DNA of 64,000 nt from Chloroflexota bacterium (GTDB taxonomy: Bacteria > Chloroflexota > Dehalococcoidia > UBA2979), in the NCBI GenBank assembly GCA_947479915.1, contig CANKAU010000007.1:16190-80189 (forward strand). The letters run 5' to 3'. The notes beneath the pieces are model-generated. The model searched no databases, was not told the origin of the DNA, and was given only the letters and a program-made list of their open reading frames with translations. Numbering within the stretch: the stretch's first letter is position 1; each line of letters starts with the position of its first letter. Positions 8,175 through 59,422 of this stretch are shown here, one piece after another. Made by a program: the position numbers and the translations under genes.

Positions 8175-9029
8175 TCAGGACTGGCGCTCGCGCACACCCA
8201 CCAGGAACTCGCGCACCATCGCGTTGAACGCGTCCGGCCGCTCCAGGTGTGCCGCGTGGCCGGCGTCCTCGATCAGACGCATCGTAATGTCCGGGATGGC
8301 TTCGGCCATCTCCCGCGCGATCACGCTGAACTTCGTGTCCAGCGTACCCGCCGTCAGGTGCACAGGCACCCCGATCCCACCGAGGCGGTCGCCCACCCAC
8401 TCCTGTGAGCCGGTGCCCATGCCGCGCAACGACCCCGCGAGCCCCACCGGGTTCTGCGCGAGCCGCCCTCGACGCAGCGCCGCGCGCTGGTCAGCCGAAA
8501 GCGTGCGCTGCTGGCTGTCCCACAAGGCGATGGACTGCCAGAAGTCGACGAACGCCTCCAGCCCCTCCCGTTCGAGGCGCTGCGCCAGCACCTCGTCCGC
8601 CGCCACGCGCGCTTCACGCTCCTCGGCCGTCGCGAGGCCGGGCGTGGCGCCCTCCAGGAACAGCGCGGAGACGACGTCGGGGCGGTGCACCGCCACCTGC
8701 AGCGCGACGCGCCCGCCCAGCGAGTAGCCGAGCCACGCCGCACGCTCGTGCCCGAGCACGCGGAGCAGCGCCGCGAGGTCATCGACGGCGCGGCGCATCT
8801 GGTAGCGGTCGAGGGCGACCGGGCAGCCCGAGCGCCCGTGCCCGACGAGGTCGACGGCGATCGTGGTGAAGTCGGGCGCGAGTACCTCGACGAGCGAGCG
8901 CCACGAGGCACCCGTGCCGGTGAAGCCGTGGATCAGGACGACGGGCGGGCCGTTCCCCGCCACCTCGGCGTGCAGGTTCAGCCCATCGATGTCGACGTCG
9001 TGGCCGGTCGAGGCGATCGGAGCGGCCAC
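8175..9029 (-). CDS. menH: 2-Succinyl-6-hydroxy-2,4-cyclohexadiene-1-carboxylate synthase (alpha/beta hydrolase)
   Basis: Alpha/beta-hydrolase motifs ([20 protein letters not shown]). GTG start at 9027-9029 lies immediately after the menD stop. The upstream part of the listed ORF is an artefact. Confidence 0.8.
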
Positions 9030-23513: not shown

Positions 23514-26018
23514 ATGCCGGATCTGCGCGACTCGTTGCGGCTCACCGCCGACCAGGTGACCGCGGCCTGCGATCTGAGCTGGCTCCACTTCAACACGACC
23601 GAGGATCTCCCGGTGCTTGAGGCGGTCTTCGGGCAGGAGCGCGCGGTGCGCGCGATCGAGTTCGCCCTCGGCATGTCGGCCCCGGGCTACAACCTCTTCG
23701 CCTCTGGACCGGACGGCTTCGGCAAGACGACGATCGTGGAGTCGTTCCTGCGGCGCCGCGCCGCGCAGATGCCCGCCCCGCTGGACTGGGTGTACGTCCA
23801 CAACTTCAACGACCCCGATCGTCCCGTCGCGATCTCGCTGGCCCCCGGCAACGCCCACGCCTTCGCGCTCGCCGTCGAACGGGCCGTCGAGGCGGCCGGA
23901 CGCGAGTTGAGCTCGGTCTTCGACTCCGATTCCTACGCGCGCCGCCGACAGGAGCTCGCCGACGAGCTGGATCGCGCGCGCGGGGTGATCCTCGAGGCGC
24001 TCCAGCGCCAGGCCGAGACCATGGGCTTCGCGCTCCAGTTCGGGCAGGCGGGGATCGTCTCCGCGCCGCTGATCGATGGCCACCCCGCCAGCGAGGAAGC
24101 GTTCGCCGCGCTCCCCGAGGAGCGGCGCAACGCCATCCTCGAGCAGCGCCGCCAGCTGGAGCGCGTCGTGCAGGAGTCGCTGCTGCAGGTGCGCGGCCTA
24201 GAGCGCGAGGCCGGCGAGAAGGCCACGAAGCTGGACCAGGAGGTCGCGGGCTACGCGACCTCTCACCTCTTCGAGCCGCTGATCGAGACCTACGGCTCCG
24301 ACATCGAGATCCGCGAATTCCTCGAGGCGGTTTCCGAGGACATCCAGGCGCAGCGCGACCGCTTCCGCAACGCGGGCCAACCGCAGCCCGTGCTACCGGG
24401 GATGATGATGCCTTCGCAGACGCCCCAGCTGAACCGCTACGCGGTGAACGTGGTCGTGTCCAACGACCCCCAGCGCGGCGCGCCGGTCATCCGCGAGGCG
24501 AACCCGACCTACTACAACCTCCTCGGACGCATCGAGTACCAGGGCCAGTTCGGCACCGCCGTGACCGACCACACCATGGTGAAGCCCGGGTCGCTGGCAC
24601 GCGCCAACGGTGGCTACTTGGTCATCCGCCTGCGCGATCTTCTCGCGAACCCGCAGGCGCTGGACGGCCTGAAGCGCGCACTGTCCTCGCAACGCCTCGC
24701 CATCGAGAACATCGCCGAGGCGTTCGGGCTGGTGCCGACAACGGGCCTGCGGCCGGAGCCGCTGCCGCTCAACGTGAAGGTCGTGATCGTCGGCGACGGC
24801 TCGCTGTACGGGCTCCTGTACCGCTACGACCCGGACTTCCGCGATCTGTTCCGCGTGAAGGCCGACTTCGAGACCGACTTCCCGCGCTCGCAGGAGAATG
24901 TCCGCGGCGTGGCCAACGTGATCCGCGCGGAGTGCGAGCGTTCCAGCCTGCTCCCCTTCTCGCGAGACGCCATCGGCCGCCTGATCGAGCACTCCTCGAG
25001 GATGGTCGAGGATCAGCGGCGGCTCTCCGCGAACATGGCGGCGTTCCTCGACATCGTCCGGCAGGCAGACTACTGGGCGCGACAGGACGGCGCGAAGATC
25101 GTGGAGGGCAGGCACGTCGACCGCTCGCTGGACGAGCGCATCTACCGCTCCTCGCTGGTGCGCGAGCGGATCATCGATGCGATGAACGACGGCTCCCTCT
25201 ACGTGGCGACCGAGGGCGCCGTGGTCGGCCAGATCAACGCGCTGTCCGTGTACGACCTGGGCGACATCTCCTTCGGTCGGCCGTCACGCGTGACGTGCGT
25301 GGTGTCCGCCGGACGCGGCACGATCGTGATGGTCGAGCGCGAGAGCGAGATGGCCGGCCGCATCCACAACAAGGGCTTCCTCATCCTGCGCGGCTTCCTC
25401 GCGAACAGGTTCGGCCAGAACCGTGCGAGCTCGCTGCACGCCAGCCTCACGTTCGAGCAGCTCTACGGGGACATCGACGGCGACTCGGCCTCCTCCACGG
25501 AGCTGTACTCGCTGCTGTCGGCGCTGTCGGAGCAGCCGATCGACCAGCAGATCGCGGTCACGGGCTCGGTGGATCAACTGGGCCGCGTCCAGCCCATCGG
25601 CGGCGCGACCGCGAAGATCGAGGGCTTCTTCGACATCTGCTCCGCCCGCGGGCTCACCGGCCGCCACGGCGTGATGCTCCCCCGCACGAACGTGGAGACG
25701 GTGGTGCTGCGCCCGGACGTCGCGCAGGCGATCCGCGAAGGCAAGTTCCACATCTACGCGGCCGACACCATCGAAGAGGGCATCGAGGTGCTGACCGGCG
25801 TGCCCGCCGGGCACGAGCGCGGCGAGGACGGACGCTTCCCCGAGGGAACGATCTTCCGCATGGTCGAAGATCGCCTCGCGAAATTCGCCAGCGAGCTGGA
25901 AGTGCGCCCGAACGCGGGCGGAGCCGAGATGCAGCACGTGCCGCCCGCCCGCATGGAGCAGCGCACGCCGCCGGGCATCCCGCCCAGCCCGCCGCCCGAG
26001 CCGCCGGTCATCGTGTAG
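23514..26018 (+). CDS. Lon-like ATP-dependent protease (COG1067 / LonC-type: AAA+ domain plus Lon S16 protease domain)
   Basis: Walker A GPDGFGKTT and C-terminal Lon protease domain (GDSASSTELYSLLSALS...). 834 aa. Listed ORF start trimmed to MPDLRDSL. Confidence 0.85.
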   Translation: MPDLRDSLRLTADQVTAACDLSWLHFNTTEDLPVLEAVFGQERAVRAIEFALGMSAPGYNLFASGPDGFGKTTIVESFLRRRAAQMPAPLDWVYVHNFNDPDRPVAISLAPGNAHAFALAVERAVEAAGRELSSVFDSDSYARRRQELADELDRARGVILEALQRQAETMGFALQFGQAGIVSAPLIDGHPASEEAFAALPEERRNAILEQRRQLERVVQESLLQVRGLEREAGEKATKLDQEVAGYATSHLFEPLIETYGSDIEIREFLEAVSEDIQAQRDRFRNAGQPQPVLPGMMMPSQTPQLNRYAVNVVVSNDPQRGAPVIREANPTYYNLLGRIEYQGQFGTAVTDHTMVKPGSLARANGGYLVIRLRDLLANPQALDGLKRALSSQRLAIENIAEAFGLVPTTGLRPEPLPLNVKVVIVGDGSLYGLLYRYDPDFRDLFRVKADFETDFPRSQENVRGVANVIRAECERSSLLPFSRDAIGRLIEHSSRMVEDQRRLSANMAAFLDIVRQADYWARQDGAKIVEGRHVDRSLDERIYRSSLVRERIIDAMNDGSLYVATEGAVVGQINALSVYDLGDISFGRPSRVTCVVSAGRGTIVMVERESEMAGRIHNKGFLILRGFLANRFGQNRASSLHASLTFEQLYGDIDGDSASSTELYSLLSALSEQPIDQQIAVTGSVDQLGRVQPIGGATAKIEGFFDICSARGLTGRHGVMLPRTNVETVVLRPDVAQAIREGKFHIYAADTIEEGIEVLTGVPAGHERGEDGRFPEGTIFRMVEDRLAKFASELEVRPNAGGAEMQHVPPARMEQRTPPGIPPSPPPEPPVIV

Positions 26019-26029
26019 ATGGCGTCCGG

Positions 26030-26605
26030 ATGACGATGTCCCCAGAGCGCGCCGGGCTGCCGCTGCTGACGCTGGACTTCGACGGTGTGATCTGCCGCCC
26101 GCCATTCGGGCGGAACGTCGGCATCCACCGCACGTTCCTCGACCCGGCCGCGCCGCCGCCCGAGGCAACGCAATACCCGCGCTGGCTGAACGACGCGCTG
26201 GACCACCTGCGCTTCGACCTGCGCGGCCCGATGCCCGGTGTCGCCGAGGCCCTCCGCGCACTACGCGAGGTGCGCCGCCTGACCATCGTCACCGGTCGCC
26301 GCAGCTCGCCGCGGTCGTGGTTGCGATGGCACGGCCTGGAGGGGTTCGTGGACGGGATCGTGGTGAACGACACAGCGCTGAAGAGCCCACACTTCAAGCT
26401 GCGCACGCTCGGCGCCCTGCACGCCGACGAGCACATCGACGACGACCCGAGGACGGCGCAACTGCTGGCGCAGGCATCCTCGACGCGAGTCTATCTCTGC
26501 GACTGGCCGCGCAATCGCGAACTGCATTACGACCCTCGCGTGGAACGCGTGGCCGACCTGCGCGCACTCGCGGAGCGGCTCAACGGCACCTCGACGGCGC
26601 ACTGA
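26030..26605 (+). CDS. HAD-superfamily hydrolase
   Basis: LDFDGVI (DxDxV) motif. The start lies 12 nt after the Lon-like stop. Confidence 0.6.
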   Translation: MTMSPERAGLPLLTLDFDGVICRPPFGRNVGIHRTFLDPAAPPPEATQYPRWLNDALDHLRFDLRGPMPGVAEALRALREVRRLTIVTGRRSSPRSWLRWHGLEGFVDGIVVNDTALKSPHFKLRTLGALHADEHIDDDPRTAQLLAQASSTRVYLCDWPRNRELHYDPRVERVADLRALAERLNGTSTAH

Positions 26606-26811
26606 ACTCGATCGGATCGAGCCGCGTGCGCATCGCGATGCGATCCAGGCGATGCGCGAAATTTCCTGCGCGGATCCCGTAGATGAACGCAACCAATCCG
26701 CGCGATGATGCGTTGTGTTGAGCGTGACGATCACAGGGCCCTGCAGTCGTCACGACCACACCCACGGGGTGCCGCCCGCTCATCCGCGGCGGCTAGTCAA
26801 AGGAACCAACT

Positions 26812-26895
26812 TTGGCTGCGACGAAGAAGCCCGCCGCGAAGCCCGCGGCGAAGCCGGCTGCCAAGCCGGCCGCCAAGCCCGCGAAGAAGAAGTAA
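26812..26895 (+). CDS. Micro-ORF: 27-aa Lys/Ala/Pro repeat peptide (M)AATKKPAAKPAAKPAAKPAAKPAKKK
   Basis: TTG start preceded by AAGGAA at 6-nt spacing. It is the first start after an in-frame TAG. A perfect intrinsic terminator follows 33 nt downstream. Confidence 0.35.
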   Translation: MAATKKPAAKPAAKPAAKPAAKPAKKK

Positions 26896-26927
26896 CTCCT
26901 CTTCGCGCCGCACGGCGCATCACTCAA

Positions 26928-26963
26928 CAAGGCCACCGGGACGCCGGTGGCCTTGTTGCTTGT
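26928..26963 (+). terminator. Rho-independent terminator CAAGGCCACCGG-gacg-CCGGTGGCCTTG followed by TTGCTTGT (possibly bidirectional, between convergent genes)
   Basis: 12-bp perfect stem, 4-nt loop and a T-rich tail, seen directly in the sequence. Confidence 0.6.
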
Positions 26964-26995
26964 CCGAGGCCGTGCAGCGCGAAGAGCGGGCGCGG

Positions 26996-27808
26996 CTACT
27001 CGAGGAGGCCGACGCGGCGGAGCAGCGTCAGGCAGTCCTCCGGGGCGCCGGCCACGTACGGCGGCACCTGGATCGTCTGCGGCGAGAGTTCGATCTGCGT
27101 CCCCTCGATCGACATGAGGATGCCGCCGACGCCTTCGAGGACGGCGACGCCGCCGGACACGTCCCAGACCGAACGCGGCCCGGTGGAGAAGTAGACGTCC
27201 GTGTCCACGCCGGCGGCGTGCACCAGCTTCACGGCGGCGGAGCCGCACGGGTACACCTCGTACGGGATGCGGTACTGCAGGCGGCGGCGCTCGTAGTCGT
27301 TGCGCGAGACGACCACGCGCTCCACCACGCCGTCGTTCGGAAGCATCGCCATCGGCACGCCGTCGCGGCGGCTCTCCCGGCGCGTCGAGGTGACCAGACC
27401 GGAGAGCACCGTGCCGTCCCAGGGGAAGCCGACGCCCCCGAGCACCAGCCGGTCATCCACGTACAGCCCGACCGAGACGCCGTACTCCGGTAGCCCGCGC
27501 AGGAACTCGCGCGTCCCGTCCAGGGGGTCAATGACCCACGTCGCCTCGCCGCGGATCAGCGGGGCTTCCTCCTCGGACTCCTCGGAGAGCCACCGGGCAC
27601 CCTCGATGAGGGGCATGAGGCGCTCGTGCAGCACGCGGTCGGCGGCGTAGTCCGCCTCGGTGACGGGGCCGGCCTCACCCTTGCTCGCGACCTTCATCGA
27701 GGTCTGCGCCAGCACCGCGCGAATCGCCTCGTTCGCCGCGCGCACGGCATCCTCCAGCCCCTCACGCACGGCATCGAGGTCGATCGCATCGAGGCGGGAA
27801 GAGGTCAC
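26996..27808 (-). CDS. Inositol monophosphatase family protein (SuhB/CysQ/HisN-like)
   Basis: WVIDPLDGT and DYAA motifs. Confidence 0.85.
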   Translation of the reverse strand: MTSSRLDAIDLDAVREGLEDAVRAANEAIRAVLAQTSMKVASKGEAGPVTEADYAADRVLHERLMPLIEGARWLSEESEEEAPLIRGEATWVIDPLDGTREFLRGLPEYGVSVGLYVDDRLVLGGVGFPWDGTVLSGLVTSTRRESRRDGVPMAMLPNDGVVERVVVSRNDYERRRLQYRIPYEVYPCGSAAVKLVHAAGVDTDVYFSTGPRSVWDVSGGVAVLEGVGGILMSIEGTQIELSPQTIQVPPYVAGAPEDCLTLLRRVGLLE

Positions 27809-54236: not shown

Positions 54237-55091
54237 CTAGCGCGTCGAGGCGCGCTTCGGGAGCGTTGCCATCAGGACGACGGGGCCGGTCGCGGCCGGG
54301 TCGTCGGCGCGGCTGGTGGCGACCACGTACACCCGCACCGCCTCAAGACGCGTGTCGCGCTGGAGCGCCACGCGCGCGCCCATGCTGCTGTCCGGCACGA
54401 ACGAGGCGGCAAGCGTTAGCTGCGACAGCGGATCCTCCAGCCAGACGCGGTACGCGCCGCCGAGCGGCAGGCTGGGCAGCGAGTGCAGGACGAGGACACT
54501 GGCACCCTCGAGCTCGCTCGTGAGGTAGGCCCCGCCGGCGCCGTGACTCGCGGCGGTCTGCTCCATGACGGTGGCCACGGCCTTCGGGTCGGCCTGCACC
54601 TTCTGTACCGCCTGCTCGTCCTTCAGCGCGGAGTTCAGCTGCAGGCTCAGCGTGCGCGCCTCCTGCACCCCGCTCGCCGCGCCCGCGAGCCGGTCGAGGC
54701 GCTTCGCGTCGGATTCGACGACCGCGCTGAGCGCGGCGGTCTGGTGACGCAGCTGCACGAGCGTGGTCTGGAGCGTTGCGGCCCAGATCGTGACCGCGGC
54801 CAGCGCGGCGGCGAGGACGTACACCGGCATGTGCCGGCCGGAGAGCGACGGGCGCCAGGAGCGGCGGCGGCTTCGGCGTGCCGCGGCGAGCACACGCTCG
54901 CGCAGGGCGGGGTCGGCGCGCCGCAGCGGTACGGACAGCGCGATGAGGTCGGCGATCTCACGATATGCACGGAACTGTGTCGCAGCGGCAGGGTCGGTGC
55001 GGATCAGGTGATCTGCATCCACCGCGTCGGGCGCGCTCAACGTGCCCAGCGCGTGCGCAGCGAGCAGTTCCTCGCGCTCCTCGGGCGTCAT
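54237..55091 (-). CDS. Anti-sigma factor (RskA-like, single TM)
   Basis: N-terminal anti-sigma domain, TM segment (VYVLAAALAAVTIWAA) and C-terminal periplasmic domain. Overlaps the sigma gene by 4 nt. Confidence 0.75.
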   Translation of the reverse strand: MTPEEREELLAAHALGTLSAPDAVDADHLIRTDPAAATQFRAYREIADLIALSVPLRRADPALRERVLAAARRSRRRSWRPSLSGRHMPVYVLAAALAAVTIWAATLQTTLVQLRHQTAALSAVVESDAKRLDRLAGAASGVQEARTLSLQLNSALKDEQAVQKVQADPKAVATVMEQTAASHGAGGAYLTSELEGASVLVLHSLPSLPLGGAYRVWLEDPLSQLTLAASFVPDSSMGARVALQRDTRLEAVRVYVVATSRADDPAATGPVVLMATLPKRASTR

Positions 55092-55654
55092 CGCGACACC
55101 CGATCGGATTCCCAGGTGGAGAACTCGGCGAGCGACTCGCGCAGCTTCCGCATGCCAAGGCGCACACGCGTCTTCACGGTGCCCAGCGGGTCACCGGTGC
55201 GCTCTGCGATCTCCACGTGCGTGAGGCCGCCAAAGTACGCCAACTCGATCACCCGTCGCTGCGCAGGAGGCAGTCGCGTCATCGCCGCTCGCACGGCTGC
55301 GCGCGCCTCCGCGACCATCAGTTCCGCCTGCGGGTCGTCCAGGTGGCCGACCGCTGCAATCTCGTGTCCCGGCTCGTCATCCTCGACGTCTTCGGAGCGC
55401 ATGCGCCGCGTGACGCGCCGCAGCTCATCCAGTGAGCGGTTGCGCGTGACCGACATGAGCCAGCTGATGAACCGCCCTCGCGTCGGGTCGTAGGAGATGG
55501 GCTGCCGCCAGAGGCGGAGGAACACCTCCTGCACCACGTCCTCCGCCAACTGGGAGTCGTGGAGCACCCGCAGGCTGACGGAGAACACCAGCGTGGAGTA
55601 GCGGTCGTACAGCAACTCCAGCGCAACGATGTCGCCAGTGGCGAGCGCGGCCAT
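55088..55654 (-). CDS. ECF-type sigma-70 factor (start uncertain; may extend to about 55798)
   Basis: Region 2 (EDVVQEVFLRLWR) and region 4 (RVIELAYFGGLTHVEIAERTG). Confidence 0.85.
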   Translation of the reverse strand: MAALATGDIVALELLYDRYSTLVFSVSLRVLHDSQLAEDVVQEVFLRLWRQPISYDPTRGRFISWLMSVTRNRSLDELRRVTRRMRSEDVEDDEPGHEIAAVGHLDDPQAELMVAEARAAVRAAMTRLPPAQRRVIELAYFGGLTHVEIAERTGDPLGTVKTRVRLGMRKLRESLAEFSTWESDRVSR

Positions 55655-55860
55655 CAGCTCGGCGTCCGTCGCGTCCGGGCGCGCGTTCGATCGCCTGCTA
55701 CTCAGGGATACGTCTGTACCGGCGGCGCGGATTCGCGCACGCAGCCCCGCCGCCCGCTCACGGGGCGAAGGCGAGGACGGAGCGGGGGCATCGACCACAG
55801 GGGTCCTCCGCAAACGCAGGTGGGGGCCGGCGGTGCGGCAATGATAAGCAAAGTGGTAGC

Positions 55861-59368: not shown

Positions 59369-59422
59369 TGATCACAACGCGCGGGTGACGCGACACGTTA
59401 CGGCCGAGACGTCCCGACTACC

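Follow-up and report, generated by a model that had tools for sequence, protein, structure and literature searches.

A conserved micro-ORF predicted to encode a stand-alone KPAA-repeat peptide, with a promoter-like motif and a structured leader, in uncultured Dehalococcoidia

Introduction

Nucleoid and granule proteins, among them AlgP, PhaF, HupB and histone H1, are known to carry polycationic repeat tails rich in lysine, alanine and proline (K/A/P) as appendages. A short open reading frame (ORF) in a member of the Chloroflexota raises the question of whether such a tail can be a gene by itself, and, if so, how that gene might be controlled and what its product might do. The ORF lies at positions 26812-26895 (+) of a 64,000-nt stretch of DNA, referred to here as the window (assembly GCA_947479915.1, contig CANKAU010000007.1, positions 16,190 to 80,189; Dehalococcoidia, UBA2979), from a genome with a GC content of 69%. 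A sequence-only reading of the window had proposed a polycationic KPAAK-repeat micropeptide with its own Shine-Dalgarno (SD) sequence, a palindrome-dense leader and a perfect terminator. In the analysis reported here, the micro-ORF, its upstream region, its predicted transcript and its neighbours were compared across related species, and the tail alone appears to be the gene.

Micro-ORF and its conservation

The coordinates and translation of the TTG-started ORF (MAATKKPAAKPAAKPAAKPAAKPAKKK, 27 aa) were reproduced, and the SD sequence AAGGAA was placed at 26800-26805, 6 nt before the TTG. The peptide begins with the fixed sequence (M)AATKK, continues with four to five KPAA repeats and closes with KKK. 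Nine of its 27 residues are lysine, giving a net charge of about +9, and it has neither a hydrophobic segment nor a signal sequence. At the DNA level the coding region is a 12-nt tandem repeat of 4.8 copies (26826-26882), which encodes four perfect units plus variants, the tandem KPAA tetrapeptide being defined as in AlgP and PhaF (PMC9239181). No other small ORF in the window has at least 20% K and at least 70% K+A+P. The micro-ORF is taken to be beyond chance because this composition is unique in the window and recurs in 27 other species.

These species were found in a comparison set of 80 loci from GTDB species representatives, fetched via the HAD-like gene that lies upstream of the micro-ORF. 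A homologous micro-ORF of 22-32 aa was present in 27 of the 80 loci, on the same strand and 0.2-3.3 kb downstream of the HAD-like neighbour, while the 53 loci without it contained no other K-rich small ORFs. The arrangement (M)AATKK...KKK-stop is common to 21 loci and the window; one locus has an MPAKK N-terminus, and five form a more distant subfamily (e.g. MATTKKAPAKAAPAKAAPAKKAPAKPAPKRK). The reading frame, the start position, the SD sequence and the C-terminal KKK/KRK-stop are retained in all 27 related species. Across the family the start codon is TTG in 22 cases, GTG in four, ATG in one and unclear in one, its position is constant, and the SD sequence (AAAGGA/GAGGA) always lies 6-10 nt ahead of it. 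Upstream in-frame extensions of the ORF were not conserved among the loci.

Variable sites in codons 2-13 (n=21 sequences) numbered 1, 0 and 8 at codon positions 1, 2 and 3, respectively; codons for Ala and Pro drift freely, with the residues unchanged. As expected at 69% GC, the five alternative frames are frequently open; none of them, however, has conserved boundaries. The sequence-only reading had warned of a scenario in which relatives lose the reading frame and keep only the terminator. With the frame kept in 27 species and nearly all variation at third codon positions, the reverse was observed. These findings suggest that 26812-26895 is very probably a real, conserved and translated gene.

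The repeat array itself appears to be a variable-number repeat and a trouble spot for assembly. On a contig encoding an identical neighbour protein, the array (L003:3943-4014) has exactly one 12-nt KPAA unit fewer than in the window, and on another such contig a run of N, i.e. an assembly gap, falls within the repeat (L002, about 8437-8925).

Representation in databases

The expectation that gene callers would miss so short an ORF was borne out, since no gene is called at its position on three contigs with the same locus. Two public predictions, P0121 (33 aa) and P0138 (90 aa), are spurious N-terminal extensions that read through the leader into the micro-ORF; such extended calls arise where an upstream start happens to be in frame. 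A protein search with the 42-aa in-frame extended version (L005) returned the mis-called P0121 as its sole family match. When the 32-aa stop-to-stop translation was run exhaustively with HMMER against 1.8 billion representatives, the matches were long low-complexity proteins and the read-through P0138. Apart from these two upstream-extended entries, the micro-ORF family is essentially absent from protein databases.

Searches of Pfam, NCBIfam and PDB yielded no family above threshold for the peptide, the best Pfam signal being a sub-threshold 'PT repeat' (15.9 bits, cut-off 26.2). The HU/IHF DNA-binding fold that characterizes HupB/MDP1 was not represented, the Pfam search finding no HU domain, and neither the PDB sequence search nor NCBIfam matched the peptide to a ribosomal chain. 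The distant-subfamily sequence MATTKKAPAKAAPAKAAPAKKAPAKPAPKRK gave a weak match to Rv3852_fam (E = 0.01; 16 bits, cut-off 100).

At the RNA level, no Rfam family reached its gathering threshold and the leader had no match of any kind. The best Rfam score was that of sX6 (RF02225), 28.6 bits against a gathering score of 40, over window positions 26797-26977; this match was dismissed because it is sub-threshold and aligns only the repeat composition plus the terminator. The consensus of sX6, a Xanthomonas 'sRNA' (small RNA), itself reads like a messenger RNA (mRNA), with an AUG followed by K-, A- and E-rich codons and then a terminator, and RF02225 may be a mis-classified small-protein gene.

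Promoter-like motif

The three palindromes that had been reported upstream of the ORF were located at 26629-26642 (CGCATCGCGATGCG), 26668-26703 (GCGCGGAT-N20-ATCCGCGC) and 26723-26754 (CGTGACGA...TCGTCACG). The palindrome-dense leader is thus real, and it resolves into a promoter-like motif and covarying hairpins of the 5' untranslated region (5'UTR).

The motif, G[CT]AAC-N17-CGTT, is retained in every subfamily and in at least 22 loci; its 17-nt spacing is invariant, while the sequence of the spacer varies. It occurs 25 times in 680 kb (loci and window, both strands), 22 of these in front of a micro-ORF, and once on the + strand of the window. A second match in the window (GTAAC...CGTT, 59376-59401, - strand) is probably due to chance, as neither a GGGCCC hairpin nor a micro-ORF follows it.

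A conserved -35 'AAC' and -10 'CGT' are the hallmark of promoters recognized by extracytoplasmic function (ECF) sigma factors (PMC5758882). The micro-ORF motif carries both elements at a fixed spacing within the ~16-17 nt of such promoters, and shares them with the B. subtilis sigma-V promoter, GCAAAC...CGTC, which is of the ECF type (PMC5758882). From this likeness we infer that G[CT]AAC-N17-CGTT looks like an ECF (stress) sigma-factor promoter. A scan for sigma-70 promoters found none, there being no -35/-10 pair with acceptable spacing. ECF-type factors do exist in the host, since the window encodes a SigK/RskA-like ECF sigma/anti-sigma pair. The sigma gene has Sigma70_r2, Sigma70_r4_2 and Sigma70_ECF domains, and in the putative anti-sigma gene after it the match to the RskA C-terminal domain is sub-threshold (24.3 bits, cut-off 29.4). 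This sigma factor was considered as the cognate one and is not obviously so: its gene has GCGTT upstream, but no G[CT]AAC-N17-CGTT.

Two further elements lie upstream of the motif. The palindromic A/T block is kept as GAAA(n)TTTC in both subfamilies and could be an UP-like element or a regulator site. The region upstream of this block is unalignable between loci, and the inverted repeat found there, which contains the first of the three palindromes, is not conserved in sequence; it is probably the 3' structure of the upstream HAD-like gene and lies outside the micro-ORF unit.

Leader RNA

The leader is predicted to fold into three helices (P1, P2 and P3), with a near-invariant single-stranded element between the first two. 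P1 has an invariant GGGCCC apex and covaries at pair 4-31 (UA/GC/AU/CG/UG, five types) and pair 5-30 (GC/AU). The base of P2 is CCGG/CCGG in most relatives and GCCG/CGGC in the window, its interior differs in both sequence and length, and eight of its nine pairs change on both sides. A plain MAFFT alignment contains indels that hid these helices from RNAalifold, and a covariance-model alignment was used instead. The covariance model, built from seven close sequences, matches all 23 core loci; elsewhere it gave only reverse-strand matches on the same palindromic hairpins and a marginal match at L011:1350-1424 (E = 0.67). In the resulting leader alignment, which is fitted to the model and includes seven palindromic reverse-strand rows, 86.9% of cells pair, compared with 30-38% with slid partners, and 23 of 26 pairs change on both sides. 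AGGGCCC occurs three times in the window, where shuffles lead one to expect about 10; as the P1 apex accounts for two of these three, GGGCCC is seemingly avoided elsewhere in the window.

Helix P3 is predicted to cover part of the SD sequence, the entire UUG start codon and codon 2. Its energy lies between -12 and -14 kcal/mol in 16 of the 23 core loci (shuffles, -6 to -7); the group with mostly GTG starts has a weaker helix, and L010 and the distant subfamily have none. The helix would account for three features of the start region. The in-frame TAG that had been noted ahead of the TTG does exist (26794-26796), but it is no conserved stop and belongs to P3 as part of UAGUC. Codon 2 is invariably GCT (22 of 22 sequences), whereas Ala codons elsewhere drift. 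The preference for UUG is explained in part, as UUG pairs with CAA within the helix. An ATG conserved in CCCATGGG was considered as the true start or as an upstream ORF and was rejected because its relation to the ORF varies across loci (in frame, separated by a TAG, or out of frame).

In the core groups P3 is predicted to sequester both the SD sequence and the start codon in a hairpin, as RNA thermometers do. A simple thermometer of the fourU or ROSE type was ruled out, since P3 does not melt in silico: the start codon has an unpaired probability of no more than 0.12 at temperatures up to 65 C in each of the four loci with P3 that were folded (window, L005, L011 and L070).

A small mRNA that is compact and highly folded, has a strong 3' hairpin and keeps its SD and start sequestered also recalls hok/tisB-type loci, and polycationic peptides can harm membranes or nucleic acids. 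The micro-ORF might by this token encode a toxic or antimicrobial polycation silenced by mRNA structure, similar to a type I toxin. Against this stand the lack of a hydrophobic segment or signal sequence in the peptide and a fixed chromosomal synteny across species in place of a mobile distribution. Moreover, no antisense promoter or antitoxin was found, antisense RNA not having been searched for experimentally. Of the explanations weighed here, a type I toxin is the least probable.

Terminator and 3' end

Three hairpins follow one another at the 3' end. The first spans the stop codon and pairs the GAAGAAG of the KKK codons with CUUCUUC; the CTTCTTC-like sequence right after the stop is kept in most core-family loci and is absent from several distant ones. 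The second is small, and relatives form the same kind of hairpin from other sequences (CTCGGC..GCCGA, CTAGCG..CGCTAG). The third had been described as a textbook intrinsic terminator with a 12-bp stem, a GACG loop and a T-rich tail. The hairpin and its loop were found as described, but the stem is of 15 bp (26925-26939 / 26944-26958) and the tail, CTTGTCCG, is not T-rich.

The G+C-rich hairpin expected of an intrinsic terminator is present (-32 kcal/mol, z = -4.0) and is nested within an outer 18-nt inverted repeat (26899-26916 / 26969-26986). A U-tract of at least five T in the eight positions after the stem is lacking, and a consensus terminator scan made no call. The lower stem covaries, the apex CCGG-GACG-CCGG is retained in 22 of 26 loci, and in several relatives the tail is more U-rich on the micro-ORF strand (TTTGTG, or a stem ending TTTT). 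In one species (L006:4791 onwards) the loop reads CGTC, the reverse complement of GACG, the apex having apparently been flipped. In the window the hairpin lies 38 nt past the stop of the convergent inositol-monophosphatase-family gene and is positioned to stop that gene too.

This position is compatible with a bidirectional terminator serving the convergent phosphatase gene, or with a structured non-coding RNA, the ORF then having arisen by chance from a 12-nt, GC-rich repeat. Indeed, the predicted transcript as a whole (26720-26975) is unusually structured, folding with z = -6.1, the start codon is buried in P3, and the sX6 family is matched below threshold. A non-coding RNA does not, however, predict that variation in codons 2-13 falls almost wholly on third positions, nor does it predict conservation of the SD sequence, the start and the KKK-stop; AATKK at the N-terminus is not part of the repeat, which argues against a chance product of it, and the sX6 alignment covers nothing beyond repeat composition and terminator. 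Likewise, the U-richer flank of the hairpin in relatives is on the micro-ORF strand and speaks against a terminator kept for the phosphatase gene. A non-coding origin is consequently considered very unlikely.

Genomic context

Features of the locus are listed in Table 1. The LonC-like protease gene and the 189-aa HAD-like gene (23514-26605 in the window; L004-L083) form a conserved adjacent pair across Dehalococcoidia. The 189-aa protein has no Pfam match in its window copy and is named 'HAD-like' because some of its homologues have a HAD-hydrolase Pfam domain; the labels of the homologues are Chloroflexi or Dehalococcoidia throughout, which places the host among the Dehalococcoidia and outside the actinobacteria. 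In several species a putative transporter gene and a methyltransferase-like gene (names guessed from sequence) are inserted between this pair and the micro-ORF. On the other side, a protein identical to that of the inositol-monophosphatase-family gene was found on contigs of the uncultured Chloroflexota metagenome-assembled genome GCA_947475775.1 and on related metagenome scaffolds.

Table 1. Features of the micro-ORF locus and of the window discussed in the text (window coordinates).
Feature	Position	Strand	Basis or remark
LonC-like protease gene	23514-26018	+	Upstream of the micro-ORF
189-aa HAD-like gene	26036-26605	+	Between the LonC-like protease gene and the micro-ORF
Hairpin-forming inverted repeat GCGCATCGC / GCGATGCGC	26628-26657	+	Directly after the HAD-like stop; contains the 14-bp palindrome
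Palindromic A/T block GAAATTTC	26658-26665	+	About 25-35 nt upstream of the -35-like element
Promoter-like motif GCAAC-N17-CGTT	26689-26714	+	Conserved motif and spacing
5'UTR hairpin P1, invariant apex GGGCCC (26736-26741)	26723-26754	+	Folding and covariation
Near-invariant single-stranded element CACCCAUGGGU (window copy CACCCACGGGGU)	26758-26769	+	Alignment of loci
5'UTR hairpin P2	26771-26793	+	Folding and covariation
Helix P3, (GC)UAGUCAAAG / CUUUGGCU(GC)	26792-26819	+	Predicted folding
Micro-ORF, TTG start, 27 aa, stop TAA	26812-26895	+	ORF, repeat and conservation analyses
Hairpin across the stop codon, GAAGAAG with CUUCUUC	26880-26907	+	Inverted repeat
Small 3'UTR hairpin GCGCC-GCAC-GGCGC	26905-26918	+	Similar hairpins in relatives
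Terminator hairpin, 15-bp perfect stem, loop GACG, tail CTTGTCCG	26925-26966	+	Inverted repeat and folding
Inositol-monophosphatase-family gene	26996-27808	Convergent to the micro-ORF	Downstream neighbour
ECF sigma/anti-sigma pair, SigK/RskA-like	54237-55700 (approx)	-	Sigma70_r2, Sigma70_r4_2 and Sigma70_ECF domains in the sigma gene

The micro-ORF is the final + strand feature before the convergent gene in 16 of 28 loci, with an inositol-monophosphatase-family ORF called downstream. In several other loci there is a + strand ORF downstream that looks antisense to the convergent gene; a few loci stop right after the micro-ORF. The judgement that downstream + strand ORFs are antisense artefacts was made for one ORF cluster.

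A short ORF directly before hairpins is the classical layout of a leader peptide or attenuator, and the convergent arrangement with the phosphatase gene, kept in most loci, could equally point to an antisense or transcription-interference regulator of that gene. Attenuation is unlikely because most loci have a convergent gene next, called directly as an ORF in the 16 of 28 just given, and no co-directional gene consistently follows the terminator. In addition, the peptide sequence itself is conserved, beyond richness in one regulatory codon, and no alternative anti-terminator pairing was seen in the folds. Taken together, a role as attenuator or antisense regulator appears improbable, slightly more so than a non-coding RNA.

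Proposed regulation and function

On balance, and by a modest margin over even odds, the locus is best read as a self-contained, probably stress-regulated and translationally gated gene for a free polycationic peptide that, by analogy, would bind polyanions. The unit would be a self-contained transcription unit of roughly 250 nt, with transcription beginning about 7-10 nt after the ECF-like G[CT]AAC-N17-CGTT. The mRNA would carry at its 5' end hairpin P1 with its GGGCCC apex, then the invariant CACCCAUGGGU, then P2. P3 would pair UAGUCAAAG with CUUUGGCU and so hide the UUG start and half of the SD sequence; translation would therefore be gated, and something would have to open P3. Beyond the ORF would come two small hairpins and the long terminator hairpin. 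The product, presumably disordered and polycationic, would act like a free tail of histone H1, AlgP or PhaF: it would bind polyanions by charge (DNA, possibly RNA/ribosomes or polyphosphate) and compact or shield them under the inducing condition. That the peptide binds DNA, RNA or polyphosphate is probable by analogy with AlgP, PhaF and histone H1 tails, and the variation in repeat number between species and near-identical contigs fits binding by charge better than shape-specific binding in a fixed pocket.

Several points weigh against this reading. The synonymous drift is somewhat overstated, as part of it is inherent to AAG/GCN/CCN codon bias at 69% GC. The micro-ORF lies within 4 kb in only about one third of the species that have the neighbour gene. 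The resemblance to AlgP and H1 tails is one of composition (low complexity), not homology. The U-tail of the window terminator is weak, and the leader pairing figures carry the fitted alignment and reverse-strand rows described above. Lastly, the start codon is predicted to remain paired up to 65 C, so that efficient translation cannot be taken for granted.

The main rival is a microprotein associated with the ribosome or with ribosomal RNA (rRNA), such as bTHX, bS22, bL37 and SRA. These tiny polycations fill rRNA pockets or join ribosomes under particular conditions; they are strongly basic, 24-45 aa in length, encoded by stand-alone genes and easily overlooked by gene callers. The micro-ORF peptide falls within the same class of size and charge, and its gene likewise stands alone with its own SD sequence and terminator. 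KPAA-type K/A/P extensions reportedly occur in eukaryotic (trypanosome) proteins as well; the only papers that a literature search gave for the repeat were on Trypanosoma cruzi, one of these reportedly dealing with ribosome biogenesis. However, the known ribosomal peptides are Arg-rich, non-repetitive and of fixed length, whereas the micro-ORF product is a simple repeat whose number of units varies between species and near-identical contigs, unlike shape-specific peptides. Furthermore, no ribosomal chain in PDB matches it, the promoter is ECF-like in place of housekeeping, and in two thirds of related species no copy of the gene lies near the conserved neighbours. A ribosomal role is accordingly regarded as unlikely, if less so than the other rivals.

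A bolder version of the polyanion-binding reading would be a stress-controlled 'bacterial protamine'. Here the leader RNA (P1, CACCCAUGGGU, P2 and P3), of a type not described before, would serve as a sensor and gate a free H1-tail peptide, and that peptide would condense the nucleoid or organise polyphosphate. Candidates for the sensor are a riboswitch and an operator bound either by a protein or, in autoregulation, by the polycation. This version is doubtful, though not as doubtful as a ribosomal role. If true, a peptide domain that elsewhere is only an appendage would here be deployed as an independent and separately regulated product.

The gene is conserved in a clade of abundant, uncultured environmental Dehalococcoidia and seems to be equipped with a promoter motif and a terminator of its own and with a structured leader that Rfam lacks. 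It adds a family to the 'dark matter' of small proteins, one that is missed on the contigs examined and mis-extended in at least two database entries (P0121, P0138). The locus offers a minimal natural system for probing what K/A/P tails do unaided, as well as a candidate for a new cis-regulatory RNA and a candidate marker of an ECF-type regulon, in a phylum whose gene regulation is almost unstudied.

Comparison with known systems

The leader recalls fourU/ROSE thermometers and riboswitch platforms in that a U-rich strand of P3 (CUUUG / UCCUU) is predicted to pair with the SD region, with the start inside the helix, and in that conserved unpaired nucleotides are flanked by covarying helices. 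It differs in the stability of P3 past 65 C in silico, in having no Rfam family and in the absence of the helix from the distant subfamily. With regard to promoters, the difference from ECF systems is on the side of the window's own sigma gene, which does not carry the micro-ORF motif.

Among proteins, the closest likeness in composition is to AlgP (AlgR3) and PhaF of Pseudomonas, in which KPAA repeats form the C-terminal domains; KPAA peptides have DNA-binding activity in vitro, and AlgP is associated with polyphosphate granules (PMC9239181). The micro-ORF peptide shares with them the tandem KPAA units, the K/A/P-rich composition, the disorder expected from it and a variable repeat number. 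AlgP, however, has 352 aa, comprising a helical N-terminal domain followed by about 25-45 C-terminal repeats, compared with four to five repeats here, and both proteins belong to another phylum than the host of the micro-ORF. The structured N-terminal domain and the hundreds of residues that characterize AlgP and PhaF have no counterpart in an ORF of 27 aa in total.

Polycationic low-complexity segments like the peptide are also found in the mycobacterial HupB/MDP1, Ku, HBHA and Rv3852, in chlamydial Hc1/Hc2, in the C-terminal domain of eukaryotic histone H1 and in protamines, whose tails bind polyanions by charge, and the distant subfamily (MATTKKAPAKAAPAKAAPAKKAPAKPAPKRK) resembles the PAKKA-type repeats of these K/A/P-rich tails. 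In those proteins the tails are attached to folded domains or form part of much longer proteins, whereas the micro-ORF peptide is predicted to be separately transcribed and to stand alone.

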